This document shows positions 4,359 to 49,526 of a DNA stretch of 64,000 bases, piece after piece. Both the position numbers and the translations under genes were made by a program. The notes beneath the pieces were generated by a model. It made no database searches, had not been told where the DNA came from, and saw only the letters and a program-made list of their open reading frames with translations. Where the stretch lies: IMG/VR virus record IMGVR_UViG_3300023710_000192. One strand, 5' to 3'. How positions within the stretch are numbered: the stretch's first letter is position 1; each line of letters opens with the position of its first letter. The DNA comes from a virus (lineage: Duplodnaviria > Heunggongvirae > Uroviricota > Caudoviricetes).

Positions 4359-4359
4359 T

Positions 4360-4785: not shown

Positions 4786-4883
4786 AAAAAGCGAAACCCG
4801 ACTATGATTTTTATTACGATAGCGAAATAGATGACGAAGTAAGTGAAACATGGATAAATATATATTTAAAGGAGGATAACACT

Positions 4884-5714
4884 ATGAAAATAATGTACAC
4901 AGTAATGGATTATGCAAAGGAAATTGCAAGCAAGGTAAACGGAGAGGTGAAAGTAGTCGACAAGCCAAACGGAGTGCAGAAAGTTGGTATTCAGTTACCA
5001 ATGGCAGAAAATAATACTGCACCGATTGTCTACGTTGACGAAATGTTCAATGAAGGCAGAAGCATTGATAGTATCATAAAATATATCAATGACAATGTAG
5101 ATAAAGGCAATTATAATCGCACATTCAACATAGACTTCCTTGATGACTTTGAGCAGGTAAAGGAAAGGTTAGGTGCTAAACTTTACAACATAAATACATC
5201 TGCAGAAGTATTCCGCAACGCAACAGAGTATGGCTTCGATGATTTGATTATTGTGCCTTATGTTCTTGTGGAAAAAGATACTGACGGTCAGGCAACAATC
5301 AAGGTAACGAAAGACTTACTTGAAAGATGGAACGTAACTGCTGATGAAGTGATTGACATTGCACTTGAAAGAGAAAAGGCAAATATGAAAGTCATGTCAA
5401 TGCTCGACACCTTAAAGGAAATGGGTTTGCCGGTTGACGAGTTGCCACCTTTACCCGAAGAGGATCAGCAGATAATCGTAACCAATAAACTCAAGGTAAA
5501 TGGTGCAATCAGTGTATTATTTGCCAAAGAGAAGTTGGCAGAGTATTTCCCTAACGGATATATTATCATGCCGTCAAGCATACATGAAGTAATAGCCGTT
5601 GCATATGACGAAAACGTAGAACCATATACCGAAATGGTAAGGGAAGTTAACGCAACGCAGGTCGCACCTGAAGAACAGTTAAGCGACCATGCTTATGTAT
5701 TTGCAGGGAGGTGA
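4884..5714 (+). CDS. hypothetical protein
   Basis: ATG 4884 preceded by AAGGAGG; listed ORF 4746 start lacks an RBS. Confidence 0.5.
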   Translation: MKIMYTVMDYAKEIASKVNGEVKVVDKPNGVQKVGIQLPMAENNTAPIVYVDEMFNEGRSIDSIIKYINDNVDKGNYNRTFNIDFLDDFEQVKERLGAKLYNINTSAEVFRNATEYGFDDLIIVPYVLVEKDTDGQATIKVTKDLLERWNVTADEVIDIALEREKANMKVMSMLDTLKEMGLPVDELPPLPEEDQQIIVTNKLKVNGAISVLFAKEKLAEYFPNGYIIMPSSIHEVIAVAYDENVEPYTEMVREVNATQVAPEEQLSDHAYVFAGR

Positions 5715-17735: not shown

Positions 17736-17748
17736 GGAGGTGTGTATT

Positions 17749-18771
17749 ATGACTGGTAGACTTGAAGGAGAAATTAAGATAAGAGAAGCAACCGAAAAAT
17801 TATTATTAGATTTACCAAATTATGTTGAGGATTGGACGAGATTATTAAGAGCATCTGATTGTACTGAAGCAACTATTAAAAATTATACAGATAAGATTAG
17901 TAAGTTCCTAAGATATATAAACACTAATGCAAAAGATGTTACACCAGATGATATTACACCGGATATAACTATTGATTATTATACGTCGTTAAAAACAAAG
18001 ATTAAAAATGGTAAGGTATGTGAAACATCTGATAGTTATAAGAGAACTTGTTGGTATGCTTTAAATAGTTTTCTTGGTTTCTTGGCTAAAAGAGACAAGA
18101 TTAAATATAACTATATAACAGATATTGATAAACCCAAAGATAATGATCTTGATAGAATAAAGGAAACACGTATTAAGTTAACTGAAAAAGACTTTCACAA
18201 TATTCTTAATGCAGTTAATAATGGAGCCGGAAGTCACAGGGCCAGAGCGAGACAACGTGAATGGAAAGAAAGAGATATGTGTATATTGGTATTATTTATG
18301 ATGACCGGTATGCGTAATACTGCAATGAGTCAAATTAATCTTGAAGATATTAATTTTGAAGATCGTACATTAATTGTTAGAGATAAAGGAAAGAGGACAC
18401 ATAAATATTATATTGAAGATGCAGCCATGAAAGTATTAAACAATTGGTTAATTAAAAGAAAAGATATTCTTACAAAGAAAAAAGTAGATACTAATTCGTT
18501 GTTTATCTCAAACAGATGCGAAAGAATATCTGCAATGAGTATTTCTGACATGGTAAAGAAATATTCTGAGGCCGGAATGGGTGTAGGAATATCACCACAT
18601 AAGATAAGAGCAGGTTTTTGTTCTATTCTTTATGAAAAGAATCCGGATCTCTTGTTTGTGAGTCGTGCAGTTGGACACGCAGATACAAAGGTGACATTAA
18701 GATATATTGTAACCGACGATTCTTTAATTAAGAAATCTGCGGGTATTATGAATAATGTAATTACAAATTGA
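17749..18771 (+). CDS. int: tyrosine recombinase / phage integrase
   Basis: C-terminal catalytic region HKIRAGF...GHADTKVTLRYI (His-x-x-Arg ... Gly-His ... Tyr) typical of the XerC/D-phage integrase family; N-terminal SAM-like core-binding region; ATG 17749 after GGGAGGTG. Confidence 0.8.
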   Translation: MTGRLEGEIKIREATEKLLLDLPNYVEDWTRLLRASDCTEATIKNYTDKISKFLRYINTNAKDVTPDDITPDITIDYYTSLKTKIKNGKVCETSDSYKRTCWYALNSFLGFLAKRDKIKYNYITDIDKPKDNDLDRIKETRIKLTEKDFHNILNAVNNGAGSHRARARQREWKERDMCILVLFMMTGMRNTAMSQINLEDINFEDRTLIVRDKGKRTHKYYIEDAAMKVLNNWLIKRKDILTKKKVDTNSLFISNRCERISAMSISDMVKKYSEAGMGVGISPHKIRAGFCSILYEKNPDLLFVSRAVGHADTKVTLRYIVTDDSLIKKSAGIMNNVITN

Positions 18772-25286: not shown

Positions 25287-26492
25287 ATGTTGCAAGATAG
25301 AAAGGATTTGGAAGATTATTTATATAATGCATTTAAACGTTTTAATAATTCAAAGGATAAAAAGCGATATATAATTAATCTGTTTGAAACATATAATATT
25401 CCAATTGCAATGTCGAGCGATATAATATCATTACGTCGTGATTTGAGTGATTATAGTGAGTTTATTCTATTTACTCTAATTGATATTTTCGATGAAAAAT
25501 TAATAGATAAATATTATAGTTCAGCAGAAATAAAAAAATATAAAAAAACTAAATTTAATATTGAAAAAATAAGTTTTCCAATCGAGTTTGATGTGTGTCA
25601 AGTAACCAACGACCAGTGGATAGGTGCAACGACATATGGTTTTTTAATGAAATTAAGAGATGCACAGTTAATTCATTACAATGAAAATACGCAAAGAACA
25701 CTTACTCATAAAACAAGAGGCGGTGTTGAACGTTGGGTTCCTACGGTAAATAAACGTGCAGTAGACGCTATCAGAGAATCATTTGCCGAAAAAAGATTTA
25801 TTCCAAATACAATAACACTTAATATTCAGATAGACGAAGAAGCAGATTTTGAGTATAAGGATCATAAATTAATAATAAACAAACTCGATTCATTTGATAT
25901 TACAGACGGTTTCCATAGATATTTAGCCTTTGGTCAGGTGTTTGATTTTAACAAAGACTTTGATTATCCAATGGAAATACGTATTACCAATTTTGGAGAT
26001 AATAAAGCAAACCAATTTATCTATCAGGAAGATCAGAAAACAAAAATGCGAAAAAGTGATTCTGATAGTCACAATCAATATAATTATTCCGTACAAGTAT
26101 TAAATAGATTAAATGAAGATAATACGTGTAATCTATTTGGAGAAATTAACAATACAAATGGAATGATGCATTTTGGTACTGCGGTACTTGTTTTGGATAA
26201 TACATACTTTTCAAAAAAGAAAAAGATAAGCAAAAAAGAAATAATAGAAATAAGCAAAGAAATAAAAACCGGGATAAATAATTTTACAGAAGAATATGAT
26301 GATTTCCTAAACAAAAGATGGACTAATAATCAAATTATAGTTGTTTTATATGGTATTTATAAACAGAAAACATCTTCTCAAATTAAAGATATATTAGAAT
26401 TAATACCTAAAGGTACTAGATCATATATACACGATGGTAAAATAAGTAAAAAAATCTTTAATATTATTGAGGAGGTGTGTGACAATGAGTAA
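25287..26492 (+). CDS. DGQHR/ParB-fold (DndB-like) domain protein
   Basis: conserved ...NENTQRTLTH... then ITDGFHRYLAFGQ, matching the QR ... DGQHR signature of the DndB/DUF262 branch of the ParB/Srx superfamily. Confidence 0.5.
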   Translation: MLQDRKDLEDYLYNAFKRFNNSKDKKRYIINLFETYNIPIAMSSDIISLRRDLSDYSEFILFTLIDIFDEKLIDKYYSSAEIKKYKKTKFNIEKISFPIEFDVCQVTNDQWIGATTYGFLMKLRDAQLIHYNENTQRTLTHKTRGGVERWVPTVNKRAVDAIRESFAEKRFIPNTITLNIQIDEEADFEYKDHKLIINKLDSFDITDGFHRYLAFGQVFDFNKDFDYPMEIRITNFGDNKANQFIYQEDQKTKMRKSDSDSHNQYNYSVQVLNRLNEDNTCNLFGEINNTNGMMHFGTAVLVLDNTYFSKKKKISKKEIIEISKEIKTGINNFTEEYDDFLNKRWTNNQIIVVLYGIYKQKTSSQIKDILELIPKGTRSYIHDGKISKKIFNIIEEVCDNE

Positions 26493-27423
26493 TTACAAGA
26501 TCTATAATGGAAAACAAAAGGAACGATATTTAAAAACAATTGATATAAGAAAGCGTTCACCCCTTTATTATCAAAGATTATTTGATAAAACTGCGGAAAT
26601 TGAGACTTTATATAATAAAGATTGCTGTAATTTTTCTGTAAATGAGTGTTTGGAATTGTTCAAGTTTATGAGTATACGAAATCTTGATAGTCTAATTAAC
26701 ACAAAAATAGACTTAATGTCGTATACCACATGGGCAATAACAGAAACTTTAGTAGATGATGGTATTAATCATTACGATGAAATATCTATAGAGATATTAA
26801 CGAGTTGTGTTGATAAGAATGCATTTGATAAATCTATTTTGAGCAGAGATGAATTAATACAATTCGTTAGTAAGCTACAAAATCCTAGAGAAGCATTTGT
26901 TATAATGTGCTTTTTTGAAGGTATATCTGGTGTTGAATATGAAGAAATAATAAAATTAAAGATGTCAGATATTAAAGACCATATTTGTAATACATGTACC
27001 GGTAGAAAAATTACGGTTTCCGATGATTTTATTAAGTATGCAAAATTATCAAATGCAGCAAATGAATATTATTTAAATCATGGTGGTGCAGAATGCGCAG
27101 AATGTTTAGAGCCTAGTGAATATATTTATAAAAATATTACAAATCGAACCAAAAACACCAGTATAACCGGAACCTATAGACGAATGAGAACAACGATGTT
27201 GCGATTATTCAAGGAAAGAGGTTATACATCTGTAACATCTAATTCTATTATTAATTCTGGTGCAATAGAATTGGTTAATAAATTAGCGAAACAACATAAC
27301 ATAAGTTCGAAAGATGTATTATACGATCCTGAATTATTTAATATTATAAGTGATAAATACAAAATCAGTATTTCATATCGAAAAAAATGGTATCTCGCTC
27401 ATAAGGATTATTTGGAAGAATAA
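26485..27423 (+). CDS. hypothetical protein with a possible degenerate tyrosine-recombinase-like C-terminal fold
   Basis: FVIMCFFEGISGVEYEEIIKLKMSDI resembles integrase box I (lal.ll.tGlRisEl..L...di) but with Arg replaced; a later TYRRMRTT...GYT block; translationally overlapped with the upstream gene. Confidence 0.3.
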   Translation: MSNYKIYNGKQKERYLKTIDIRKRSPLYYQRLFDKTAEIETLYNKDCCNFSVNECLELFKFMSIRNLDSLINTKIDLMSYTTWAITETLVDDGINHYDEISIEILTSCVDKNAFDKSILSRDELIQFVSKLQNPREAFVIMCFFEGISGVEYEEIIKLKMSDIKDHICNTCTGRKITVSDDFIKYAKLSNAANEYYLNHGGAECAECLEPSEYIYKNITNRTKNTSITGTYRRMRTTMLRLFKERGYTSVTSNSIINSGAIELVNKLAKQHNISSKDVLYDPELFNIISDKYKISISYRKKWYLAHKDYLEE

Positions 27424-27933: not shown

Positions 27934-28052
27934 GGGAAGATAGCTCAGTTGGTAGAGCGCAGTATAGTTAAGGTGTCATAATGTGACACTAGCAGCAATC
28001 TTACTATTGCTTTCTAAGCCTGAGGTCGGTGGTTCGAGTCCATCTCTTCCCA
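27934..28052 (+). ncRNA. tRNA-like gene with a roughly 60-nt insertion (two hairpins) in place of the anticodon arm
   Basis: perfect acceptor stem GGGAAGA/TCTTCCC; canonical D-arm TAGCTCAGTTGGTAGAGC; T-arm GGTGG-TTCGAGT-CCATC; the intervening region holds hairpins GTGTCA-TAATG-TGACAC and AGCAAT-CTTACT-ATTGCT. Confidence 0.5.
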
Positions 28053-28149
28053 TTTTACAAGTTTAGGTTTGTGTCCTTTCCTATTTGTACCTTACGGCGT
28101 ATAGGTTAACCGTCGTTTACCCCCTTTGCAACACCTTTTTATAGGTGGA

Positions 28150-28209
28150 GTTAAGTCGCTCGGTTGGGAGTACACATTAAGTTGTGCGGGTTCAAATCCC
28201 GGCTTAACT
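28150..28209 (+). ncRNA. compact (about 60 nt) tRNA-like element
   Basis: GTTAAGT/GCTTAAC acceptor-like stem with one GU, CGGG-TTCAAAT-CCCG T-arm, short CACA-TTAAGT-TGTG hairpin; too short for a canonical tRNA. Confidence 0.35.
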
Positions 28210-28376
28210 TTTCCATTCATAAATGGATCCTCCCTTAATATAGTTTGTGACTCTTACAGCAATTAATTACAAAACAAGTTTGGTGTTTTTTACAGAGTCA
28301 TGTAATTGTGTGACACACACAGCGTTATATAGTAAAAATTGATACTAACAAGTGTCATGAAAGGAGAAAAAAGACG

Positions 28377-29867
28377 ATGAATTTTGCAGAAACATTAAAA
28401 AAAGAAAGCAGTAAAACACTAACAGAAAACGGGGCAACGGCTCTCAATACAACAGGAGACAGATGCCTTGATTTTTTTGCGTCTGGCGGCAGTCTAAGAG
28501 ATGCAGATGATATTAGGATTAAGAGATTGTTTGATGATGCTTATGCTGAAGATTCAGTTACTGCAGTGAGAACACTTTGGTATATCCGTGATCGAGAAGG
28601 TCTTGGAGAAAGAAAGGTATTCCGTAATCTCATTAATCATTGTGCAGTGTATCACCCTGAAACAGTTAGACCTAATTTGCAGTACATTGGTGAGTTTGGT
28701 CGTTGGGATGATATTTATTCTTTGGTTGGAACACCGGTTGAGGACGAAATGTGGGCGGTTGTTAAGGCTCAATTTGAGAAAGATCGTACTGATATGGCAA
28801 ATAAAATGTCAATTTCATTGTTAGCAAAGTGGCTTAAAACCGCCGATGCAAGCTCAAAAGAGACAAGAAAACTTGGTATTTATACCGCTAAAAAGTTAGG
28901 ATACTCAGTTTATGATTACAAACGAATTGTTAAATCAATGCGTAAGTACATAAAAGTTGTAGAAAGTCTAATGTCAACGGAACAGTGGGATAAAATCGAG
29001 TATTCGGAAGTTCCAAGTAGAGCAATGATGATTTATCGCAATGCTTTTGGTAAACACGACGAGAAAAGATTTAATGACTTTACAAATAAGGCAGTTATTG
29101 GTGAGGCTAAAATTAACTCTTCAACACTTTATCCATATGATATTGTGGATAAGTTTGCAGTTTGGAAATGGAATGCTCCTAAATTAAACGACAATGAAAA
29201 GAAAGTATTGGAAGCTCAGTGGAGACAGTTGCCAAATTATGTCGAGGAAGGAACAAATGCAATTGTAATTGCAGACGTTTCCGGCTCGATGACTTGTAGC
29301 AACGGTAGACCATTAGCTACTTCCATAGGATTAGCAATTTATTTTGCTGAAAGAAACAAGGGTGATTATCATAATCTTCTTATGACTTTTAGTGACAATT
29401 CAGATATTGTTGAACTTAAAGGAAGTACATTAGAACAGAAGATACAGTTTGTTAGCGAGATTGATTGGGGTAATGGTACTAATTTACATGCAGCGTTTAA
29501 AAAGATCCTTGATTTAGCTATTAAAAACAATACCCCACCAGAAGATATGCCAAAATCAATAATTGTAGTATCCGATATGGAGATTGATAATTATTGGAGT
29601 CCAAATGAAGATTGGACATTTTATGACACTATTAAAGCAGAATATGGTAGTCATGGGTATGAGATTCCTAACGTAATATTTTGGAATGTTGATAGCAGAC
29701 ACGATATATTCCATACAGATGCTAAACGCAAAGGTGTTCAGTTATGTTCTGGTCAATCAGCAACTACATTCAAACACTTAATGGCTTGTATTGGTATGAC
29801 ACCGGTTGAAATGATGAATAAGGTAGTTAACTCTGAAAGATACCAGTGTATTACGATTGGGAGGTAG
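28377..29867 (+). CDS. TROVE + von Willebrand A (Ro60/Rsr-like) protein
   Basis: C-terminal vWA with MIDAS AIVIADVSGSM ... SIIVVSDMEID; about 300-aa N-terminal domain of the size and position of a TROVE module; sits directly downstream of tRNA-like ncRNAs, as bacterial/phage rsr-yrlA loci do. Confidence 0.45.
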   Translation: MNFAETLKKESSKTLTENGATALNTTGDRCLDFFASGGSLRDADDIRIKRLFDDAYAEDSVTAVRTLWYIRDREGLGERKVFRNLINHCAVYHPETVRPNLQYIGEFGRWDDIYSLVGTPVEDEMWAVVKAQFEKDRTDMANKMSISLLAKWLKTADASSKETRKLGIYTAKKLGYSVYDYKRIVKSMRKYIKVVESLMSTEQWDKIEYSEVPSRAMMIYRNAFGKHDEKRFNDFTNKAVIGEAKINSSTLYPYDIVDKFAVWKWNAPKLNDNEKKVLEAQWRQLPNYVEEGTNAIVIADVSGSMTCSNGRPLATSIGLAIYFAERNKGDYHNLLMTFSDNSDIVELKGSTLEQKIQFVSEIDWGNGTNLHAAFKKILDLAIKNNTPPEDMPKSIIVVSDMEIDNYWSPNEDWTFYDTIKAEYGSHGYEIPNVIFWNVDSRHDIFHTDAKRKGVQLCSGQSATTFKHLMACIGMTPVEMMNKVVNSERYQCITIGR

Positions 29868-36325: not shown

Positions 36326-37330
36326 TTGAGATACAGTAAAGAAGCATTAGACAGAATGGCAGAACAAATAGATCTCCTAGAGTATGCAGAGAAAACAATG
36401 GACTTCACTAGAAAGAGTAAAAATTATTTTACTCATTGTCCATTACATGTTGATAACACGCCATCGTTGTGTATTAATCCTGAAAATAACCTATGGTATT
36501 GTCATTCGTGCCACAAAGGTGGTTCTATATTTCAATGGATGCAGACCTTTGAAGGATTATCTTTTACTGAAGCCATTGAAAAGGTTGCAGACATAACCGG
36601 TACAGATGCTCATGAATATTTAAAATCTGAAACAGTAGGAGTGTTTGAAGAATTGAAAAGGTGTAATGCTAATAAAGAAACGGATTTATCGGAGAGAAAG
36701 ATATTAGATTTTCAAAAAGATTACCTTGAAAAATATAAAGATGATATACCGAAAGAATGGATTGATGAAGGAATCACTATTGAAGCCCTTAAAAAATATA
36801 ATATTATGGTTGATGATAGTTCAAGAAGAATTGTTTATCCCGTGTTTGATGCTGGCGGAAATATGATTTCTGTTAAAGGTCGAACAAGAATAAATGATTT
36901 TAAAGAATTGAAAATAGCAAAGTATATTAATTTGTATCCAATAGGAACAATAGATTTCTTTCAGGGTTGGTGGCAAGCATATGATGAGATCATTGCTAAT
37001 AAATCCGTAATCATTTTTGAGGGTGTTAAGTCTTGTATGAAAAGCTATGGGTGGGGTATTAGAAATACAGTTGCAGCAGAAACTTCGGAATTATCAGAAG
37101 GGCAGATTAAGTTGCTAATTAAAAACAAAATCCCAGAGGTAATAATTGGTTTTGATACTGATAAACCTTTTAAGAATATAGTAACAAATGACAAAATAAA
37201 AATGCTTAAAAACTTTTGTAGAGTAAGTGTTATTAAAGATACACAACATTTACTTGGCGAGAAAATGGCCCCGGTTGATAATGGCGAAGCGATATATAGA
37301 AGATTACTGGAAGAAAGGGTAATTATATGA
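36326..37330 (+). CDS. DnaG-type DNA primase (zinc-binding + TOPRIM)
   Basis: CPLHVDNTPSLCINPENNLWYCHSCHKGGSIFQW CHC2 zinc finger; later TOPRIM-like IIFEGVKS...GFDTD. Confidence 0.75.
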   Translation: MRYSKEALDRMAEQIDLLEYAEKTMDFTRKSKNYFTHCPLHVDNTPSLCINPENNLWYCHSCHKGGSIFQWMQTFEGLSFTEAIEKVADITGTDAHEYLKSETVGVFEELKRCNANKETDLSERKILDFQKDYLEKYKDDIPKEWIDEGITIEALKKYNIMVDDSSRRIVYPVFDAGGNMISVKGRTRINDFKELKIAKYINLYPIGTIDFFQGWWQAYDEIIANKSVIIFEGVKSCMKSYGWGIRNTVAAETSELSEGQIKLLIKNKIPEVIIGFDTDKPFKNIVTNDKIKMLKNFCRVSVIKDTQHLLGEKMAPVDNGEAIYRRLLEERVII

Positions 37331-37749
37331 CAGATAAAAGATTTTATAAATGTGTTAATGGAAAACTTATTACAATTCCACCAATGGATGAACTTTGTGA
37401 AATGTTAAAAGAAAAATTTGCAGAACAAGCTCTTACCAATGAATTGCTTAAGGAAGAAAACGAAAAACTAAAATCTAATGTTTGGGCAGATGAAACTATG
37501 GCTGATTTAAAAAATAAGTATGAAGTAATGTGGAGGGCTTATTATGACGGGTTTCCAATAAGCATTGAAGAAAAGAAAGTATTATTAGAATGGATAAGGA
37601 GTCATGAAGAAGACAAACATAACGGTGAATTATATAGTGGTGCGGTAGGCGGCGCTTATACATATAAGTTTACTCCTACAAGTATTGGAACGATAGGAGA
37701 AATTGAGTGTAATTGCGGTGAGAAGTTTTGCTTCAGAGAGTTAGATTAA
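37327..37749 (+). CDS. hypothetical protein
   Basis: ATGA overlap; coiled-coil N-terminus. Confidence 0.45.
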   Translation: MTDKRFYKCVNGKLITIPPMDELCEMLKEKFAEQALTNELLKEENEKLKSNVWADETMADLKNKYEVMWRAYYDGFPISIEEKKVLLEWIRSHEEDKHNGELYSGAVGGAYTYKFTPTSIGTIGEIECNCGEKFCFRELD

Positions 37750-37770
37750 TTAGAAAGGAAAAATAAAAAA

Positions 37771-38193
37771 ATGGATGATCTGATTGAAAAAACAAAAAAT
37801 GCTTCGGCTGGCACTCCATATATGGGTGGGGGGATTTCTATAAAAACATCCAATATCGCCACCAGTCAGACGACGAATAGACCAATGACGCTACATCATT
37901 CTTTGGATAAAGGGGATAAATATATGGATAATAAAGATTTATTTAAGACCATGCGACCTTTTATTTGTGAATATAATTGTAAACTTCAAGAATTAATTGA
38001 TGATATTGAAAGATTAAAGTTACATGATCATGAGATAAATATAATGTATTTACAACAATTGAGAGATGTAGGTCTCTATTCTTTAGATAAGAAAAAGAAA
38101 ATAGATAATGTAAAGAAAGCATTTACAAAGTTATACGATAAATATAGTTATGAACTCGAACAATTGATTGAAAATAAGAGGAGAAACGTATGA
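37771..38193 (+). CDS. hypothetical protein
   Basis: ORF with AAAGGAAAAA RBS. Confidence 0.4.
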   Translation: MDDLIEKTKNASAGTPYMGGGISIKTSNIATSQTTNRPMTLHHSLDKGDKYMDNKDLFKTMRPFICEYNCKLQELIDDIERLKLHDHEINIMYLQQLRDVGLYSLDKKKKIDNVKKAFTKLYDKYSYELEQLIENKRRNV

Positions 38194-40823: not shown

Positions 40824-41285
40824 ATGTATAACAGAAAAAAACAAGTAAACTCTGCATTTAGCAAATATTATACCAAAAATATATTTAAGATAATCAAATA
40901 CTTCTTTCGAGATTTAAAGTTTTGTTGTCAGAGAATTAAATATGGTTGGTGTGAAAAGGACTGTTGGTCGATAGACACATGGTTTCTTGGAATTATGCCT
41001 GATATGATAAGACACCTCAGAGATAATAAATGTGGGCATCCGGCTGATTTAACTGAAGAAGAGTGGGATAACATTCTTGATACTCTTATAGTATTGTTTA
41101 ATGAAGCTGACGAAGATAACTGTCAACGGATGAAAAATGAATATGAAGATGCATTAAGTAAAAAAGATCCTGAAATATATCATAAGTATTTTGAACGAGA
41201 AAAAGAGATTTTTCAATATAGGAACGAATGTAAAGATAAAGGATTTAAAACGTTTTCAAAATACTTTTGGAATTTATGGGATTAA
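40824..41285 (+). CDS. Cys/Trp-rich hypothetical protein
   Basis: GTGAGGTG RBS. Confidence 0.45.
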   Translation: MYNRKKQVNSAFSKYYTKNIFKIIKYFFRDLKFCCQRIKYGWCEKDCWSIDTWFLGIMPDMIRHLRDNKCGHPADLTEEEWDNILDTLIVLFNEADEDNCQRMKNEYEDALSKKDPEIYHKYFEREKEIFQYRNECKDKGFKTFSKYFWNLWD

Positions 41286-41317
41286 ATAGTAAAAATTGAT
41301 AGGAGATAGTGTAAAAT

Positions 41318-41922
41318 ATGAAAGGTAAAGATTGGATTGGTAATAAACCTGCTGTTTTTACAACATTGGCAGCAAGTAATCATAGTAATAATCAAAGAGC
41401 AGACAGGGATTTTTATGCAACCGAACCTCGTGCTTTAGATGTTTTATTTGACGAGGGGGGGTGAAACTTGACACAAATATTCTTGAACCTTCTGCCGGTA
41501 ATGGACATTTAGCAGAGGTACTTAAAAATCATGGATATAGCGTTACTTGTAAAGACATAGTACAAAGAGATTACCCACTTGATGCCACATGGGATTTCTT
41601 AAAAACAGAGGAAAAGTGGCATGGCGATATAGTAATGAATCCACCATATAAAGATGCTCTTAAACATGTTGAAAAAGCAATAGATATAATTCAACCGGGG
41701 CATAAGGTATTAGCATTCTTAAAACTTCAGTTTTTGGAGGGTAAGAAGCGTAGAAGATTTTTTGAAACAAAACAGTTAAAAACAGTATATGTGTCAACCT
41801 CAAGATTAAATTGTGCAAACAATGGTAACTTTGAAAAATTCGAATCTTCAGCAGTGTGCTATGCGTGGTTTGAATGGGAAAAGGGATTTAATGGTGATCC
41901 GATTATTAAATGGATTAATTAA
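41318..41922 (+). pseudogene. small N6-adenine DNA methyltransferase split by a frameshift in a G7 homopolymer (in frame with G8)
   Basis: upstream piece MKGKDW...DRDFYATEPRALDVLFDEGG stops at TGA right after GGGGGGG (41455..41461); downstream piece (GTG 41461) carries motif I EPSAGNGH and motif IV NPPY; inserting one G fuses them as ...DEGGVKLDTNILEPSAGNGH... Confidence 0.6.
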
Positions 41923-41933
41923 AAGGAGGAATT

Positions 41934-42167
41934 ATGAAACCGGTTGTAGGAAAAAAATATTTATACGAGGGTACAGATAGATATGTAACAGACAGATATT
42001 TAACACCAATGAAATTGTCTGGTACGCATATATTAATAAAAACAAGAGATAGTATTTGGGATAGACTTAATGGACGTTCAATGTATATGGTTACTGATCT
42101 TGGTGTCGAGGTTAATATTGGGCGTGGCTCATATATAGAAGAAAAATGTTTAAAGGAGATTGAATAG
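41934..42167 (+). CDS. hypothetical protein
   Basis: AAGGAGG RBS. Confidence 0.45.
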   Translation: MKPVVGKKYLYEGTDRYVTDRYLTPMKLSGTHILIKTRDSIWDRLNGRSMYMVTDLGVEVNIGRGSYIEEKCLKEIE

Positions 42168-42358
42168 TGATACGAGTAGAAAATAATTGCGTATGTTGTG
42201 CGTTACCTTGTATTCACTGTGAAAGAGGCAGAGATAGATTAGTTCATTATTGTGACGAGTGTAACTGTACGGCTGACGTATTGTATGTATATGATACCGA
42301 AGAATTATGTGAAGAGTGTTTACTTAATAGATTTGAGATAGTTGATCAGGAGGAGTAG
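42167..42358 (+). CDS. Cys-rich zinc-ribbon-like small protein
   Basis: CVCCALPCIHC...CDECNC. Confidence 0.4.
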   Translation: MIRVENNCVCCALPCIHCERGRDRLVHYCDECNCTADVLYVYDTEELCEECLLNRFEIVDQEE

Positions 42359-42362
42359 TAGT

Positions 42363-42530
42363 ATGAATCCAGTTTTTATCTTATTAGTATTAATTGGTGC
42401 GGTAGCATTATGGTTCTTATTGTCTTTTGTATTTTTGCCATTAGGAAAATTCATTTACAGAATTGGTAAAGATGCAACAGATGCTATAAATAAAGATAAT
42501 AATGATGAAGAAAAGGAGAAAGAATTATGA
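42363..42530 (+). CDS. small single-pass membrane protein
   Basis: MNPVFILLVLIGAVALWFLLSFVFL TM segment; CAGGAGGAG RBS. Confidence 0.4.
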   Translation: MNPVFILLVLIGAVALWFLLSFVFLPLGKFIYRIGKDATDAINKDNNDEEKEKEL

Positions 42531-43453
42531 AAAAAGGTTATTTAGGCGGAGTTACTTTAGGAGTAATTATCGTATTGGCACTTATTATTTTAGGTTTATC
42601 CGCAGAGAGAGTACCAGCGGGATATGTAGGAGTTGTATATAACATGTCAACTGGCGTATCTGATGAAACATTATCACAAGGCTGGCATTTAATACCACCA
42701 ACAAAGAGAGTTACTTTGTATTCAATAGGTATTGAACAGTCATATCTTACTTCGACAGAAGATGGTGATTCTAAGGGTGATGATAGTTTTTCAGCACCTT
42801 CCAGTGATGGTAAAGGATTGCAGATGGAGTTAACGTTTACATATAGATATGATTCAGAAAAGATTGCTGATACATTTACAAGATTTAAAGGTCGTGACGG
42901 TAAAGAGTTACTCAATAGTTTTATTAAGCCTAATATTATCAGTTGGACTAAAGAAGTAACTGCAAAATATCCAGTTACAGATATTCTTGGAGAAAAGAGA
43001 GCTGAACTTAATACAGTTCTTTCCGAGTATTTAGCAGAAAAGTTCAAACCTTATGGGATTATTATTGAAAATGCTTCATTGATCAATATTGAAGTAGATA
43101 AAGAAACCAAAAAGAGTATTACTAATAAGGTTAAAGCGCAGCAAGAATTGGAACTTGCGAAGATTGAGTCTCAGACGGCTCAGATTCAGGCCGAAAAAGA
43201 TAAACAAGTTGCACTTATCGAAGCAGAAAAGAACAAGGAAACGGCTCAGATTCAAGCAGAGCAGGCCAAGATTAAGGCTCAGGGTGAAGCAGATGCTAAG
43301 AAGATTGCTGCAGATGCAGAAGCACAGGCTAATAAAAAGATTTCAGAATCACTTACACCAGAACTCATTGAAAAGTTTAAGTATGATAAATGGGATGGTC
43401 AGGTTAGTAAGATTACTGGAAACACAACACCTATCGTAAGAGTTGATGAATAA
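42527..43453 (+). CDS. SPFH/band-7 (prohibitin/HflK-like) membrane protein with coiled-coil tail
   Basis: N-terminal TM, then ERVPAGYVGVVYNMSTG... typical SPFH core, then AQ/KE-rich coiled coil; ATGA coupling with the upstream small TM protein. Confidence 0.65.
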   Translation: MKKGYLGGVTLGVIIVLALIILGLSAERVPAGYVGVVYNMSTGVSDETLSQGWHLIPPTKRVTLYSIGIEQSYLTSTEDGDSKGDDSFSAPSSDGKGLQMELTFTYRYDSEKIADTFTRFKGRDGKELLNSFIKPNIISWTKEVTAKYPVTDILGEKRAELNTVLSEYLAEKFKPYGIIIENASLINIEVDKETKKSITNKVKAQQELELAKIESQTAQIQAEKDKQVALIEAEKNKETAQIQAEQAKIKAQGEADAKKIAADAEAQANKKISESLTPELIEKFKYDKWDGQVSKITGNTTPIVRVDE

Positions 43454-43456
43454 ATA

Positions 43457-43497
43457 ATTTACCTACGGTAGTTGTCAAAGGCTACCGTAGGATTTTC
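43457..43497 (+). terminator. rho-independent terminator
   Basis: perfect 10-bp inverted repeat CCTACGGTAG-N10-CTACCGTAGG followed by ATTTT. Confidence 0.6.
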
Positions 43498-43509
43498 GAG
43501 GAGTGTTAT

Positions 43510-43866
43510 ATGGATAAGATAGAATATTGGGTTGAAGATGATGGATGTTATTTTACTCCCGGCGGTGATCCGCTATGGAGTTGTCCAAGATGTGGCAACG
43601 GTAAACATGTTTATGGGATAGAATCACCTTACAGAGAGAACAAGTGTAAAGATTGCGGGTTAGAATTAAGGTATCCGAGCGATGACAAATGCGTAAATTG
43701 CAAGTATTTTCATAGACTGAAATGTGATTTTAAAACAGGTTGGGGATTTAAAGAATCATCTTGTTGTATAGCATTAACCAGATGTAATGAGGATATTGAT
43801 GATTATGATTCGTTTGTTGTTGAATGTAGAGAAAATGATCGTTGTGAAATGTTTAGTAAGAGGTAA
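43510..43866 (+). CDS. multi-CxxC zinc-finger protein
   Basis: CPRCGNGKH...CKDCG...CVNCKY... Confidence 0.45.
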   Translation: MDKIEYWVEDDGCYFTPGGDPLWSCPRCGNGKHVYGIESPYRENKCKDCGLELRYPSDDKCVNCKYFHRLKCDFKTGWGFKESSCCIALTRCNEDIDDYDSFVVECRENDRCEMFSKR

Positions 43867-43869
43867 TTA

Positions 43870-44174
43870 TGTTGGATTTTGAGATTAAACTACCCACGAT
43901 GCTAAAGCATCGGGGATTTTGATAGCCTTCGGCTGTTAGTATCCCAAGTTTAATAGCCTAAGTTCTTCGAGAGCTACGTTAAGAGAGAATATATAGTTAC
44001 CTACGGATATAGTACCAAGTCTGTAGCTCTAAGGTCTGTGATTAAACAATCCTGTTGGGTAGGGATAGTGTTGCAGATATATAAAACCTCTCATTAACAT
44101 TGGCGATGGTACGCTTAACCACTCTTCGGAGTGAGTAATTAACTCTTAATTGAGTTGGAAAGGAGACGGACTTT
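43870..44174 (+). ncRNA. candidate omega-RNA (OMEGA guide RNA) of IscB
   Basis: about 300-nt ORF-free, hairpin-rich leader immediately 5' of iscB (GATGC-TAAA-GCATC, GCC-TTCG-GC, CACTC-TTCG-GAGTG tetraloop hairpins), which is where IscB omega-RNAs are known to be encoded. Confidence 0.55.
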
Positions 44175-45419
44175 ATGGTTTACGTCTTAAACCAAAACGG
44201 ACAACCTTTAATGCCTACGGAAAACCATGCTAAAGTCCGTATTCTGTTAAAACAAAGAAAGGCAAAGGTTATTAAGAAATGTCCGTTTACGATACAACTG
44301 TTATATAGTAGCACGAATTATACTGGAGAGATTACTTTAGGCATAGATAGTGGAAGTAAGCATATCGGTCTTTCGGCAACTACAAAAGACAAAGTATTAT
44401 TCGAGTCTGATGTAGAACTACGAAACGATATAGTAGATTTACTTTCTACACGTAGGCAAAACCGTAGAACACGAAGAAATCACAAAACCAGATACCGTAA
44501 ACCTCGTTTTAATAATCGAAAGCGTAAAGACGGTTGGTTGGCACCTTCGGTTCAAAACAAGGTAGATAGTCACTTAACCGTTATCCGCAGAGTACACGAA
44601 ATCTTACCTGTCAGTAAGATTGTTGTAGAAGTAGTAAGTTTCGACATACAAAAGATTAAAAATCCTGCAATAAGCGGTGTTGATTATCAGCAAGGCGAAC
44701 AGTTAGGCTTTTGGAATGTTAGGGAATACGTTTTCTTCCGTGACGGACATCGGTGCCGGTGCTGTAAAGGTAGGTCAAAAGATAAAATACTCAATGTTCA
44801 CCATATAGAAAGTCGTAAAACAGGAGGTAACGCTCCTAACAACTTAATTACGCTTTGTGAGACTTGTCATAAGGGGCATCACAAAGGAACTGTAAAATTA
44901 CCAAAGACTATCAAGCGTGGCATGAGTTTTAAAGATGCTACTTTTATGGGAATTATGCGATGGGCTTTCTACAATAAACTAAAAGAAATCTATCCTAATG
45001 TTAGTCTAACTTATGGTTATATCACAAAGAACATAAGAATAGAAAATGGTTTACCAAAAGATCACCATATAGATGCACGTTGTATTAGCGGAAATCCATT
45101 GGCATCATCGGATGGTACAGTATATTATCAAAAGAAAGTAAGATGTCACAATCGTCAAATACATAAGAATACTATTCTTAAAGGTGGCATCAGAAAGCGT
45201 AATCAAGCGGAATACGAAATTAAAGGATACAGATTATTTGATACTGTAGCCTATAAAGGTAATATCTATACTATATTCGGCAGAAGAAAAAGTGGTTTCT
45301 TTGATATTCGTACTATTGATGGTATAAAAGTAAACAAAGGCTCTGTGAGCTGTAAGAAACTACGGCTTATTCAACCGAATAGTAACTATTTAATCGAGTT
45401 TAGGAAACAAGCTGTTTAG
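44175..45419 (+). CDS. iscB: IscB, IS200/IS605-family OMEGA RNA-guided nuclease (RuvC + HNH, Cas9 ancestor family)
   Basis: PLMD domain MVYVLNQNGQPLMPTENHAKVRILLKQRKAKV; RuvC-I ITLGIDSGSKHIGLS; Arg-rich bridge helix RRQNRRTRRNHKTRYRKPRFNNRKRK; HNH CRCCKG...NVHHIESRKTGGNAPNNLITLCETCH; RuvC-III DHHIDARCI; 414 aa. Confidence 0.8.
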   Translation: MVYVLNQNGQPLMPTENHAKVRILLKQRKAKVIKKCPFTIQLLYSSTNYTGEITLGIDSGSKHIGLSATTKDKVLFESDVELRNDIVDLLSTRRQNRRTRRNHKTRYRKPRFNNRKRKDGWLAPSVQNKVDSHLTVIRRVHEILPVSKIVVEVVSFDIQKIKNPAISGVDYQQGEQLGFWNVREYVFFRDGHRCRCCKGRSKDKILNVHHIESRKTGGNAPNNLITLCETCHKGHHKGTVKLPKTIKRGMSFKDATFMGIMRWAFYNKLKEIYPNVSLTYGYITKNIRIENGLPKDHHIDARCISGNPLASSDGTVYYQKKVRCHNRQIHKNTILKGGIRKRNQAEYEIKGYRLFDTVAYKGNIYTIFGRRKSGFFDIRTIDGIKVNKGSVSCKKLRLIQPNSNYLIEFRKQAV

Positions 45420-45560
45420 ACGGCTTGAGGGATTAGGGAAGGGCGGCTTTCCTCCCCTCTGCTAAAGCAAAGGGGTTTCCAGCCGTGGGTATATGAAATA
45501 ATTAGAAGTAAGGTAGAATCAAACGAAAAATGGCGGGAATGGTGTAAAAAAATAAAGCCA

Positions 45561-45821
45561 TTGAAATTTGATTCTAAAATAAATGTAACTATAATACCAC
45601 CATTTGCAGGAGCATTAACACGATTTGTATGTGATTATAATGGCAAGAGTGTTTCCGTATATTTCGACGGATATTCACAGTTGGGACATATGTATGAAGG
45701 AGAAGAGGCTATTCCTTATTATGAAGCATATCCTATAGATGGTTATAATCTACGATATTTATTAGGAGAAGAAGATTTGTTAATGGCAGATATTAAAAGA
45801 GAATTAGGTATAAGTGAATAA
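45561..45821 (+). CDS. hypothetical protein (TTG start)
   Basis: ORF directly after the IS-like element. Confidence 0.4.
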   Translation: MKFDSKINVTIIPPFAGALTRFVCDYNGKSVSVYFDGYSQLGHMYEGEEAIPYYEAYPIDGYNLRYLLGEEDLLMADIKRELGISE

Positions 45822-45854
45822 AACTACAATTTCATTATAAGATTGGAGGAACTT

Positions 45855-46289
45855 ATGAAACATAGAATTGGTGGATTACAAAACACATATATGGGATTAG
45901 GTGCCGACAATATTCCCTATGAACTCGACAATACATTTAGTGGCAATGAGAAATTAGATAAAGTTGCTCATGAAATGTTTGAGGTGGCATTAGAAACTAT
46001 TTGTAAAAAGAATGATATAGATGCTTTTGATTTTAAGGTAATAAGCGACAATAAGAGTTTTGATATAAAGTTTGGATATGAACCGGCTTATATGCATGAT
46101 CCGTATTTTATGATTTGTATAACAAGTTTTTATAAGGATAGTTACATTGCCAAGGGTGTAGCCAAAGGATATTACGGCAAAGATATTGAAATCACATATC
46201 ATAAAACAGCGGTAGATGAAGATCGAGATAAAGATTTCGGAGAATTTCTGGATGAGTGGTATCCAAAGTTATTAGAATGTTTTGAATAA
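45855..46289 (+). CDS. hypothetical protein
   Basis: ATG after TTGGAGG. Confidence 0.45.
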   Translation: MKHRIGGLQNTYMGLGADNIPYELDNTFSGNEKLDKVAHEMFEVALETICKKNDIDAFDFKVISDNKSFDIKFGYEPAYMHDPYFMICITSFYKDSYIAKGVAKGYYGKDIEITYHKTAVDEDRDKDFGEFLDEWYPKLLECFE

Positions 46290-46315
46290 AAGTAATTTTT
46301 TATGAGGAGGTTTTT

Positions 46316-46774
46316 ATGAGCTACAGGACATATGTTGAAGGTGTTCAAATATTTGGGAACAATGAATGTTATAAAAAGTGGATTAACTTTATCGTTAAGG
46401 AAGGAATAAAGGTTGATGAAGATGAATGTTACGACGGATACATTTCTGATATTCAAGGCGCAGTTGAAGTAATCGAAGAAATTATTTTGGACATAGCAAA
46501 AGAAAGAAATGATATGAAACTCTGCAATATTTTTGATTTTACCGATATTTACAACGAAGAAGTTGAAGCCAGAAATAATAACGATTACAGTTTGAATTTA
46601 ACATATAGGCTTAAACATATTATGGATAACGGATATATATTTATGTCTAACAATTTTATTGAAGCTTGTGGGGATAAAGTTAGGAGTTATTTAGATTTTA
46701 AAGACAGTAGAAAAAGGACTGAATATTATAAACTTACCAATAACGATATAAAAATACATGTCGAAGCATATTAA
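46316..46774 (+). CDS. hypothetical protein
   Basis: GAGGAGG RBS. Confidence 0.45.
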   Translation: MSYRTYVEGVQIFGNNECYKKWINFIVKEGIKVDEDECYDGYISDIQGAVEVIEEIILDIAKERNDMKLCNIFDFTDIYNEEVEARNNNDYSLNLTYRLKHIMDNGYIFMSNNFIEACGDKVRSYLDFKDSRKRTEYYKLTNNDIKIHVEAY

Positions 46775-46789
46775 TCAAGGGGTGTGAGT

Positions 46790-46987
46790 ATGACAAAAGA
46801 AGAATACATAAACTCGTTTAAAATAGACAATTTAACGCCGCAATTAGAATGGAGTGAACCTAAGTTTGATTGCTCAGAGTGCGGCGGTGGTATGTGCAAA
46901 AATAATATGATTGTGTTAACGAGTAATCCACCACAATACCAATATCGTTGTAATAAATGTGGACATGTGGAGTATTTAAGATTTTAA
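46790..46987 (+). CDS. zinc-ribbon small protein
   Basis: CSECGGG...CNKCGH. Confidence 0.4.
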   Translation: MTKEEYINSFKIDNLTPQLEWSEPKFDCSECGGGMCKNNMIVLTSNPPQYQYRCNKCGHVEYLRF

Positions 46988-47005
46988 ATCAAGAAAGGAA
47001 ATAAT

Positions 47006-47539
47006 ATGAAAATACAAATTAGAAAAGGTTGTTTCGAGACAAATAGTTCAAGTACACATGCAATATGTATATCAAGAGATAATGTAAATATTGATGATTT
47101 GCCTAAACATATTACCTTTACTCATGGTGAGTTTGGATGGGAAGCAGAAGTGTATGATGGTACATGGGAAAAAGCATCTTATTTATATCAGGCCATTTGT
47201 GATTGTTGCTATGACAATGAAAACGAATTGCGAGAAAAGTTAGAGCAACTTGAAAGATTGTTGGCTACATATGGAATAGAATGTGATTTTGAACCAGAAA
47301 GGAAAAACGTCTGGGGTAGCGGTTATATAGATCATGGTTATGAGACAATTGACTTTGTTGATGCCGTATTAAAAGATCCGGATAAACTTATGCGATATTT
47401 ATTTAATGATTCTATTATTATAACAGGAAATGATAACGATGATTGGTTTGAGGAATATATGTATAACGAACCATATCAGTATCCACAAACTTACAAAGAT
47501 GAATTTAAAAAATATGAAATATTTAAGAAAGGAAATTGA
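47006..47539 (+). CDS. hypothetical protein, family with N-terminal (R/K)G.FETNSSSTH motif (paralog 1)
   Basis: MKIQIRKGCFETNSSSTHAI; a tandem paralog follows. Confidence 0.5.
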   Translation: MKIQIRKGCFETNSSSTHAICISRDNVNIDDLPKHITFTHGEFGWEAEVYDGTWEKASYLYQAICDCCYDNENELREKLEQLERLLATYGIECDFEPERKNVWGSGYIDHGYETIDFVDAVLKDPDKLMRYLFNDSIIITGNDNDDWFEEYMYNEPYQYPQTYKDEFKKYEIFKKGN

Positions 47540-47542
47540 TTT

Positions 47543-47941
47543 ATGAAGAAACAAATTAGAAGAGGTGTATTTGAAACTAATTCATCGAGTACACATTCAA
47601 TCACAATGATGATGAAAGAAGATTACGACAAGTGGGAAAAAGAAAATTTATATCTATTTGATGGAAATGGTAACCATTTTCCTAAAGAATGTCGTCCGGA
47701 AATTGGTAAGATGTATACAAAGGAAGAAGTAATTGATTTTTTAAAGGCTCATGACAGAAAATATGAATACGAGTATTTTGATTACGAGAATAATGAAGAA
47801 GAATTTGATGATGTACGACGAGATGAAGAATTCAAACTTATTGAAGAAGGAAATGAATACTTAGAAGGTTATTATAAAGAGTTTACTACTCCTAGTGGAG
47901 AAACAGTAGTAGCATTTGGAGAATATGGATACGAAGGTTAA
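47543..47941 (+). CDS. hypothetical protein, same FETNSSSTH family (paralog 2)
   Basis: MKKQIRRGVFETNSSSTHSI. Confidence 0.5.
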   Translation: MKKQIRRGVFETNSSSTHSITMMMKEDYDKWEKENLYLFDGNGNHFPKECRPEIGKMYTKEEVIDFLKAHDRKYEYEYFDYENNEEEFDDVRRDEEFKLIEEGNEYLEGYYKEFTTPSGETVVAFGEYGYEG

Positions 47942-47953
47942 TGAGGTAAATAT

Positions 47954-48862
47954 ATGTTATTAGGGAAATATAAGAACGGAACATATTATGTTTCTATATA
48001 TGACGACGGAACCAAAATAAGAACTGCACCAAACGATGAATTTATTCCTGATTTTTCAGAGTCGTGCGATGTTACTATCACAGAGTATTGCGATGGTGGT
48101 TGTGCTTGGTGCTATGCTGGTTGTTCATTAGATGGTAAACATTGTGATTTTAATAAATATGATAAATTGTTGGATTCACTTCATCCGTACACTGAGTTGG
48201 CAATAAATGGCAACGATCTTACACACCCACAATTAATTCAGTTTCTTGAGAAAATGCAGCAGAAAAAGATTATTGTTAGCATGACAGTTAATCAGATGCA
48301 TTTTGAAAAGAATATTGAATTATTGCGTGATTTATGTAATAAGAAGTTAATTTATGGGTTAGGTATTTCATTAAGAAATGCCAATAAAGAGTTTGTTAAA
48401 TTGGTACAAGAGTTTCCAAATGCGGTAATTCATATAATTAATGGATTATTTACGCCAGATGAATACGAAGTTCTTAAAAATAATAACTTAAAAGTATTGA
48501 TTCTAGGGTACAAACAAATAGGTCGTGGCGTTGATTGGTATAAACAGGATAATATTAATATTACTAATAATCAAAAATGGTTAACGGATATATTACCCAA
48601 TATAATTAATGATTTTAAGGTTGTTAGTTTTGACAATTTATCATTAAAACAATTAGAAGTGCGTAGATTAATGTCTACTGATGAATGGGAACAATTTTAC
48701 ATGGGAAACGATGCAACGTTTACCTACTTTATTAATCTTGTTCAGGATTATTTTGCACCAAGTTCATTATCTGATAAACATTATCCAATTAACAATATGA
48801 ATATAGATGAGATGTTTAAAATTATAAGGAATAACAATAGGGTAGAAAATAGTAAAAATTGA
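47954..48862 (+). CDS. radical SAM protein (possible glycyl-radical activase / NrdG-like)
   Basis: CDGGCAWCY = CxxxCxxC with an aromatic before the third Cys, followed by an ELAINGNDLT glycine-rich SAM-binding-like motif; the only rSAM in a window that contains nrdD. Confidence 0.5.
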   Translation: MLLGKYKNGTYYVSIYDDGTKIRTAPNDEFIPDFSESCDVTITEYCDGGCAWCYAGCSLDGKHCDFNKYDKLLDSLHPYTELAINGNDLTHPQLIQFLEKMQQKKIIVSMTVNQMHFEKNIELLRDLCNKKLIYGLGISLRNANKEFVKLVQEFPNAVIHIINGLFTPDEYEVLKNNNLKVLILGYKQIGRGVDWYKQDNINITNNQKWLTDILPNIINDFKVVSFDNLSLKQLEVRRLMSTDEWEQFYMGNDATFTYFINLVQDYFAPSSLSDKHYPINNMNIDEMFKIIRNNNRVENSKN

Positions 48863-48875
48863 AGGAGTAATATAC

Positions 48876-49526
48876 ATGGAATACAACAAACTTGTAAATC
48901 AGGATTGTATGGAATATATGAAAAATATTGGTGCGGGGGGGGTAGAACTCACCTTAACTGATATACCATACGGAGAAGTAAACAGAGATAGTAATGGTTT
49001 GAGAGAGTTAGATAAAGGTGCAGCAGATGTAATGATTTTCAATATACAAGATTTCCTTGATGAAATATATAGGATAACTCGAAGTACAATTATTATTTTC
49101 TGTGGCAAAGAACAATTATCTGAAATACATAGGTATTTTTCTGACAAACAAAAACAACAAAAAGGTACTGTTAGACAGTTAATTTGGAGAAAAACTAATC
49201 CGTCTCCTATGAATGGACAGAATATTTATTTATCAGGCATTGAAAATGCCGTGTGGTTCAAGAAACGTGGTGGCACATTTAATGCATATTGTAAGAATAC
49301 TGTTTTTGATTATCCATGCGGTAGAAGTAAAATACACCCAACGGAGAAAAATCATGAGTTGTTAAAAGAATTAATACTTGATAACTCAAATGAAGGAGAT
49401 GTTATATTTGATCCTTGTGCCGGAAGCGGTAGTCATTTGTTGGTTGCTAAAGAAAATAATAGACAATGGTTAGGTTGTGAGATTAATAACGAGTGGTTTG
49501 ATGTGGCTAGAAATAGGTTGAAATAA
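48876..49526 (+). CDS. beta-class N6A/N4C DNA methyltransferase
   Basis: N-terminal LVNQDCMEYMKNI...VELTLTDIPYG (motif IV D-I-P-Y) and C-terminal FDPCAGSGSHLLVAKENNRQWLGCEIN (motif I); circularly permuted order typical of the beta group. Confidence 0.65.
   Translation: MEYNKLVNQDCMEYMKNIGAGGVELTLTDIPYGEVNRDSNGLRELDKGAADVMIFNIQDFLDEIYRITRSTIIIFCGKEQLSEIHRYFSDKQKQQKGTVRQLIWRKTNPSPMNGQNIYLSGIENAVWFKKRGGTFNAYCKNTVFDYPCGRSKIHPTEKNHELLKELILDNSNEGDVIFDPCAGSGSHLLVAKENNRQWLGCEINNEWFDVARNRLK

Follow-up and report, generated by a model that had tools for sequence, protein, structure and literature searches.

IscB is an RNA-guided nuclease ancestral to Cas9. Elements that pair an iscB gene with its omega-RNA are already established, as is a homing role for them, and the locus described here is one more well-preserved member: a 1,608-bp insertion sequence (IS) of the IS200/IS605 family, ISC type, at positions 43885..45492 (+ strand) of a 64-kb stretch of phage-like DNA (IMG/VR record IMGVR_UViG_3300023710_000192; hereafter the window, by which we mean the whole 64,000 nucleotides analysed). 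The element is non-autonomous and consists of an omega-RNA scaffold, iscB and two subterminal hairpins.

For IscB elements, Meers et al. (2023, PMC10055086) state that the omega-RNA scaffold derives from the transposon right end (RE), the guide being specified by the DNA directly beyond the transposon end. In the same work TTCAT was determined experimentally as the target-adjacent motif (TAM) of the IscB of ISGst5, a transposon-encoded motif differing from the TAM was found to prevent self-cleavage, omega-RNA biogenesis was found to require that the element be co-oriented with upstream genes, and tnpA was found near only about 1.5% of iscB genes (PMC10055086). “Non-restorative homing” of OMEGA elements is so far theoretical for phages, the only demonstration being that of TnpB on plasmids (2026 review, PMC13565253); as cited in that review, Mears et al. 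(2025) describe an IS605 gene drive on plasmids that is driven by TnpB, not by IscB.

Set beside these systems, 43885..45492 is very likely a non-autonomous ISC-type IS that encodes IscB and an omega-RNA and is positioned to cut element-free sister phages and, as its sequence suggests, to home into them. The original prediction for this locus had left two options, a selfish IS or a nuclease co-opted by the phage. The selfish IS fits best, since the guide is only the flanking DNA that any IscB element picks up on insertion, and its match is the uninterrupted form of the gene in which the element sits.

Boundaries and coding content of the element

The limits of the element are established by comparison with a sister contig, L010 (ENA ERZ27291655 k119_417470), that lacks it. 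In L010 the two flanks are contiguous, ATGTTAGATTTTGAGA abutting ATGAAATAATTAG (in a longer reading of the left flank, TAATTATGTTAGATTTTGAGA abutting ATGAAATAATTAG), while in the window they are split by 43885..45492, and blastn blocks between the two sequences end at 43884 and resume at 45493. Relative to both L010 and a second element-free contig, L119, the insertion is a clean 1,608-bp indel with zero duplicated target bases, and there are no terminal inverted repeats. A unit at 43868..45500 had been proposed, together with a comparison to related phages for its presence or absence; the colinear sister confirms that the unit is an indel, but its true limits are those given by the L010 comparison and the blast breakpoints.

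Each end carries a subterminal hairpin. The one at the omega-RNA end, at 43893..43915 (+; CCCACGATGCTAAAGCATCGGGG), is the right end by the TnpA convention and shows compensatory changes among homologous elements; the one at the iscB-distal end, at 45454..45475 (+; CCCCTCTGCTAAAGCAAAGGGG), is the left end by the same convention, and the element ends 17 nt beyond it, at 45492. The two hairpins are related and belong to direct-repeat family D2. This hairpin pair, combined with a clean indel that has neither inverted repeats nor a target duplication, is the architecture of IS200/IS605 elements.

Structured, GC-rich sequence at 45421..45490 had been taken to bound the unit; the structure is there, but it is the element's own end hairpin and not an outside boundary. 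On the other side, a terminator at 43457..43497 had been given the same role and does not hold it: the hairpin in question, 43462..43491, is not adjacent, a 118-aa gene (43510..43866) intervenes, and a terminator scan was silent. The element is GC-richer than its surroundings, as had been noted, but only modestly so (37.7% versus 32.7% in the 5-kb flanks). None of the window's 79 open reading frames (ORFs) with a length of 90 aa or more matched PF01797, the Pfam model of Y1 (HUH) TnpA, in a search that did not extend to a host TnpA acting in trans, so the reported lack of tnpA is correct within the window; this absence is expected because non-autonomous elements make up the majority of iscB loci, about 98% of iscB genes being without a tnpA. 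An intron or IStron restoring the interrupted gene was considered and rejected, as 43000..46500 gave no hit to any intron family, even with E values of up to 10 allowed.

The iscB gene occupies 44175..45419 (+) and encodes 414 aa. Its product matches the curated NCBIfam model NF040563 (guided_IscB, the “RNA-guided endonuclease IscB” equivalog) at 390.1 bits against a cut-off of 175, Pfam RRXRR (PF14239) at 231.6 bits (cut-off 25) over all 174 model positions, and Pfam HNH (PF01844) at 28.1 bits (cut-off 21.4); the best match to an IscB chain in the PDB has E=2.9e-54. The PLMP domain (PLMP at residues 11-14) is joined to a RuvC domain that is split by an arginine-rich bridge helix (residues 93-118) and an inserted HNH, and these segments align with solved IscB chains. 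The motifs GIDSG (56-60, with D58), VVEVV (E152), CRCC...VHHIE (H209/H210)...NNLITLC...CETCH and DHHIDA (H297/H298/D300) are present, so that the nuclease residues D58, E152, H209/H210 and H297/H298/D300 are all kept. The full IscB domain series read from this ORF in the original prediction is borne out by the ORF itself, its motifs and the Pfam, NCBIfam and PDB matches, and the proposed test of an IscB profile against a merely generic HNH protein comes out in favour of IscB. Homologues with 80% identity or more also conserve residues 332-414, where a C-terminal TAM-interacting domain would be expected; neither the NCBIfam model nor the PDB alignments to OgeuIscB reach this part of the protein. 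The ratio of non-synonymous to synonymous substitution rates (dN/dS) is 0.03-0.08 against four homologous copies, indicating that the iscB family is under strong purifying selection.

PHROGs and GenBank label the phage homologues merely “HNH endonuclease”, and the protein gives a weak 18-bit match to Cas9d, labels and a score that could be read as pointing to a conventional protein-guided HNH homing endonuclease or to the remnant of a type II CRISPR-Cas9 system instead of to OMEGA. A plain HNH enzyme, however, does not have a full-length RRXRR/PLMP-RuvC match, 390 bits on the IscB equivalog and an adjoining HEARO RNA, and for Cas9 the 18 bits compare with a cut-off of 375 and the protein has just 414 aa. 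No CRISPR repeat array was found nearby or elsewhere in the window. The Pfam, NCBIfam and Rfam matches together with the absent array refute this explanation, and we give it next to no weight.

The omega-RNA scaffold runs from 43885 to 44160 (+) and comprises a HEARO core, at 43885..44118, followed by two more conserved hairpins that reach up to the iscB ribosome-binding site; its 3' limit near 44160 was placed by conservation alone. Rfam HEARO (RF02033), a family since recognised as the IscB omega-RNA, matches the core with 122.1 bits, above its gathering score of 83, and E=5e-26 over model positions 1-211 of 211, on the same strand as iscB and 5' of it, beginning at the first inserted base and stopping 56 nt short of the start codon. 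The fold is stabler than that of shuffled sequence (minimum free energy z-score of -3.0), and 15 of its 62 predicted pairs show compensatory double changes, a count drawn from only four homologous elements and hence from a small sample. Match, fold and covariation bear out the suggestion that the hairpin-dense, ORF-free stretch upstream of iscB is where the omega-RNA lies, and the covariance-model search that had been proposed for it exceeded the gathering score. The features whose absence had been named as counting against an IscB element, namely a hit to an IscB hidden Markov model, an omega-RNA and an indel, were all looked for and found, and none of these searches refuted the interpretation.

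Guide, interrupted gene and element-free alleles

Because the scaffold begins at the first inserted base, the predicted guide is the 16 nt of flanking phage DNA at 43869..43884 (+; ATGTTGGATTTTGAGA), directly 5' of HEARO model position 1; the length of 16 nt is the value from the IscB literature. This refines an earlier placement at about 43868..43890, which was sound. Among independent insertions the sequence at the guide position differs each time while the scaffold is conserved.

The guide coincides with the opening of a conserved 114-aa phage gene, from its start codon through its first five codons, and the element interrupts this gene after codon 5: the first 16 nt of the gene are 43869..43884, and its 3' remainder is 45493..45821 (+). 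Intact homologues of 109-115 aa (P0121-P0126) are present in related contigs, with the N-terminal 28 residues conserved (MLDFENEIIRSKVESNEKWREWCKK...). What remains in the window is a 17-codon stub and an 86-aa ORF from a TTG at 45561, the longest left, and the insertion probably inactivates or truncates the gene. The remnant differs from L010 and L119 by three private amino-acid substitutions (K→Q, C→Y and P→L), too few to speak for relaxed selection. The iscB stop codon is in frame with the remainder of the interrupted gene (45417..45821) and is followed two codons on by a second stop (45426..45428); from 45428 onwards the frame meets no further stop as it crosses the end hairpin and enters what is left of the gene, but it contains no ATG, GTG or TTG before 45561.

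The right flank opens with ATGAA at 45493..45497 (+). In the empty alleles this motif abuts the guide-matching sequence, and on the other strand it reads TTCAT, as does the TAM of ISGst5. The same ATGAA stands at the iscB-distal end of the independent insertions L016 and L020 and of a 92%-identical element (P0002) in three contexts (L122, L123 and L124). Most homologous loci repeat this arrangement, with GGGTTTCC and, 12-15 nt further on, ATGA. Among the 49 GTDB and other homologous loci in which the end-hairpin motif was located, 41 have ATGA within 45 nt, where chance would give 23%; its offset from the motif is mostly 12-15 nt, and most of the GTDB loci examined have ATGA[A/C]. In the right flanks of L016, of L020 and of many among L035-L114, the next gene often begins with the ATG of the TAM (ATGAA or ATGAC), as in L020, where the right flank ATGAAAATGAGAAAATG... 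opens a lipoprotein-like signal peptide. This overlap means that elements of the family often sit directly before a gene start and not within a gene, and the window copy is an exception.

The element-free alleles fall on both sides of what the guide would recognise. In L119 the guide match is 16/16 with ATGAAA directly after it, and in L010 it is 15/16, again with ATGAAA, the mismatch being the sixth base from the TAM-distal end; these are the guide matches beside a TAM in related phages that the original prediction had proposed to look for. The diverged allele of L120 and L121 matches at 13/16 and has ATAGA in the TAM position, and would therefore escape as a substrate. At the occupied site the terminal bases of the element, 43885..43889, place TTAAA in the TAM position, which differs from ATGAA at two of five positions. 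Around the insertion the window and L010 are about 98-99% identical within 300 bp on each side (94-98% over the flanks overall), so that recombinational repair would be feasible. A search of the window for a second guide target, allowing up to three mismatches, returned none: apart from the element's own site there were two three-mismatch matches, the chance level.

These features suggest the following course of events. The element has the orientation of the upstream genes and surrounding operon, and read-through transcription of the phage operon would produce an RNA in which 16 nt of phage flank (43869..43884) are fused at the 5' end to the scaffold. IscB loaded with this RNA would cut DNA in which the guide-matching sequence is followed by ATGAA, an arrangement present only in the uninterrupted allele, and the occupied site, with TTAAA in that place, would be spared. 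The break would then be repaired by recombination with an element-bearing copy through the near-identical flanks. Such repair would restore the element after its excision by a TnpA acting in trans, and would also copy it into a sister phage genome in the same cell. Since the carrier is a phage, sister phage genomes would be the natural substrates.

Taken a step further, the element might act in nature as an RNA-guided gene drive that needs no TnpA and passes from one large temperate phage to a related one, a proposal that we hold tentatively and to which we would give somewhat less than an even chance. On co-infection, or superinfection of a lysogen, IscB would cut the sister's intact 114-aa gene and recombination would convert the sister; the filled allele would then be the carrier, the empty 16/16 and 15/16 alleles with their TAM the targets, and the diverged allele an escape.

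The default guide, by matching the empty allele, also points at competing sister phages, and the nuclease could in principle be a weapon co-opted by the phage, one that destroys or excludes co-infecting or superinfecting sister phages with an intact target gene to the benefit of the carrier, its own spread being secondary. Perfect or near-perfect guide matches with a TAM in the intact alleles of sister phages would serve such a use, as would the fixation of the element in all 11 contigs of the strain; IscB homologues occur in 31 deposited phage genomes, and phage homing endonucleases are known for marker exclusion (review, PMC13565253). The copy is, however, indistinguishable from a standard IS, with both end hairpins intact; its guide is the default flank and has not been retargeted, with no other match in the window; and the phage pays for the insertion with the disruption of a conserved gene. 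Exclusion would moreover go hand in hand with homing, and sequence alone does not separate the two. We consider co-option unlikely and prefer the selfish, homing IS.

Relatives, carrier genome and the case against homing

The identical IscB protein was found on 14 contigs from several samples, a 222-kb contig of JGI 3300021306 and 13 others with the same arrangement. Related contigs were recovered by exact-protein look-ups. The 92%-identical element P0002 lies at three sites (L122, L123 and L124) with a different 5' flank each time, which suggests that close relatives have been mobile recently. L122 holds two iscB genes of different subfamilies 2 kb apart within a phage-like run of small ORFs, one at 769..2007 (412 aa, with an ATGAC-type end) and the other, P0002, at 4001..5245 (414 aa, with an ATGAA-type end).

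IscB homologues as a whole number thousands, the nearest having 85-92% identity and coming from rumen and gut metagenomes and from metagenome-assembled genomes of Lachnospiraceae. GTDB species genomes contain 413 loci, mostly in Lachnospiraceae, Sharpea and Erysipelotrichaceae, some genomes with several copies. Homologues are present in 31 of 50,697 deposited phage records, at 56% identity for the best, and are annotated there as HNH endonuclease or hypothetical protein. A megablast search of 41000..48500 against the 50,697 deposited phages gave no match. In IMG/VR, scans with the two flanking proteins returned no relative for one and one weak relative for the other, and a scan with the junction pattern returned five matches, all by chance in unrelated sequence; scans of JGI metagenomes for the upstream protein and for the junction pattern returned nothing, and a scan of GTDB genomes for that pattern was equally empty.

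The sister contig L010 encodes, at 4361..5515, a 384-aa TnpB (OrfB_IS605, Cas12f1-like_TNB), where the window has two 140-aa genes (37327..38193); with TnpB in one and IscB in the other, the sister genomes carry different OMEGA nucleases. A reciprocal clean insertion of this TnpB was considered and rejected, since the difference is a module replacement (L010 3844..5657 versus window 37360..38178) for which no empty site can be defined.

The window is about 33% GC and its substantial ORFs are all on one strand. Its replication genes encode SSB, a DnaB-like helicase, a primase, a Pol III alpha-type polymerase and NrdD, and other genes encode a dUTPase, methyltransferases, a Lar-like protein, two tyrosine integrases and one tRNA. 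The nearest polymerases among deposited phages are those of the Clostridioides phage-plasmid pCD1602_4 (48.6%) and of large Bacillus siphoviruses. A divergent module, some of whose proteins belong to families known only from phages, precedes the window; the sequence examined showed no phage structural genes. About 0.5-1 kb past the right end of the window the GC content steps from 31% to 39-40% (L115, at about 12,700-13,000). L115 is contig Ga0214508_1000086, in which this step lies at about 125.2 kb. The last phage-like ORF before the step encodes an HTH_17 protein, and the genes beyond it are bacterial (a PQQ-repeat protein, a DAP epimerase, aminotransferases and a chemotaxis receptor). Prophage and chromosome probably meet at this step.

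A free jumbo phage, as the 222-kb contig of JGI 3300021306 might suggest, was rejected, the next 8 kb being bacterial genes at 39-40% GC. The carrier is very likely a large temperate phage or prophage of a rumen or gut Firmicute. Integration as a large prophage is the most economical explanation and is more probable than a free jumbo phage, though the phage/bacterial junction may be the product of a chimeric assembly. The original prediction of an insertion into a phage genome holds in that the DNA is phage-like, but the carrier would not be a free phage.

Several observations weigh against a homing element at work in this strain. No promoter was found between the hairpin 43462..43491 and the guide, that hairpin may terminate part of any read-through, and transcription across the guide would have to be assumed. 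The exact IscB protein is known only at this site, and the element is present in every one of the 11 contigs whose upstream gene is identical; nothing thus points directly to movement of this copy, which may simply be fixed in one strain. With an integrated carrier, the polymorphism could reflect a single old transposition in one strain and not homing.

In its extreme form this objection makes the element a mere passenger, brought into the prophage a single time by a TnpA that the host supplied in trans, since fallen silent or inactive, and without a part in the biology of the phage. The carrier does seem to belong to a bacterial chromosome, IscB genes are plentiful in genomes of rumen Lachnospiraceae, Sharpea and Erysipelotrichaceae, where they occur in multiple copies, and there is neither an evident promoter nor a tnpA in the window. 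An inert passenger is hard to square, however, with an intact ORF, catalytic residues, omega-RNA and pair of ends, with the strong purifying selection on the family, and with a protein that is 100% identical in 14 contigs from several samples. We judge this explanation very improbable, and the selfish IS that would home into sister phages remains our preferred reading.

Other features of the carrier were recorded alongside. The tyrosine-recombinase genes at 17740..18771 and 26467..27423 (phrog_1 and phrog_5830 integrases) are deep inside the carrier element and not at its edge. A 675-aa EcoRI-type adenine methyltransferase is encoded at 20611..22638 and a second N6/N4 methylase at 48876..49526, along with the Lar-like restriction-alleviation gene. 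At 27934..28052 (+) the Rfam tRNA model scores 50.5 bits, where ARAGORN makes no call; the acceptor, D and T arms are all intact, but 57 nt take the place of the 11-nt anticodon-loop region. A second, weak tRNA-like match lies at 28149..28210, and about 320 nt downstream of the first, 28377..29867 (+) encodes a 496-aa protein with DUF2828/DUF7788/vWA matches and 434 bits to phrog_850, “RNA-binding protein”. The first tRNA-like sequence and this gene presumably resemble a tRNA-like Y RNA of the YrlA type and a Ro60-like protein.

Comparison with known systems

The likeness to ISGst5 is drawn from the published description of that element and from motifs. Like ISGst5 (Geobacillus stearothermophilus; Meers et al. 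2023, PMC10055086), the window element is a tnpA-less member of the IS605 family with its omega-RNA upstream of iscB. In both, transposon and scaffold begin at the same base, the flank supplies the guide, TTCAT serves as the TAM (read as ATGAA in the direction of iscB) and the end-encoded motif is two positions off the TAM; D58, H209 and H210 are numbered alike, and both elements are co-oriented with upstream genes. Unlike ISGst5, which is in a bacterial chromosome, the window copy is in a large phage or prophage of an anaerobic gut or rumen Firmicute, is single-copy in the available sequence and has no cognate TnpA identified.

The RNA agrees with HEARO (RF02033) in matching over its full length immediately 5' of a same-strand RRXRR/HNH ORF, and differs from the model in that one hairpin is enlarged by an insertion at 43916..43945. 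For OgeuIscB we take the TAM to be NWRRNA, with which the local flank ATGAAA is compatible. The protein shares the domain order of OgeuIscB (PDB 7UTN, 7XHT, 8CSZ), with PLMP, RuvC-I, bridge helix, RuvC-II, HNH and RuvC-III aligned at E=8e-52; in contrast to OgeuIscB it has 414 aa against 496 aa, and the alignment ends at residue 331, before the C-terminal TAM-interacting region. Those who mine for genome-editing tools may take a minor interest in an IscB so compact and with so simple a TAM as ATGAA.

Judged from its sequence, the copy does not depart from the known OMEGA mechanism. Its value is as a natural test case for phage-to-phage RNA-guided homing, since the element is delimited, a perfect target with a TAM is present in sister phages and an escape allele is at hand. 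In this it is like the phage homing endonucleases T4 Seg/Mob and I-TevI and like the TnpB gene drive of IS605 on plasmids: the nuclease gene destroys its own target by its position, related genomes that keep the allele intact offer the substrate, and super-Mendelian inheritance is predicted in mixed infections. Unlike T4 Seg/Mob and I-TevI, the window element would recognise that substrate by an RNA guide and a TAM.

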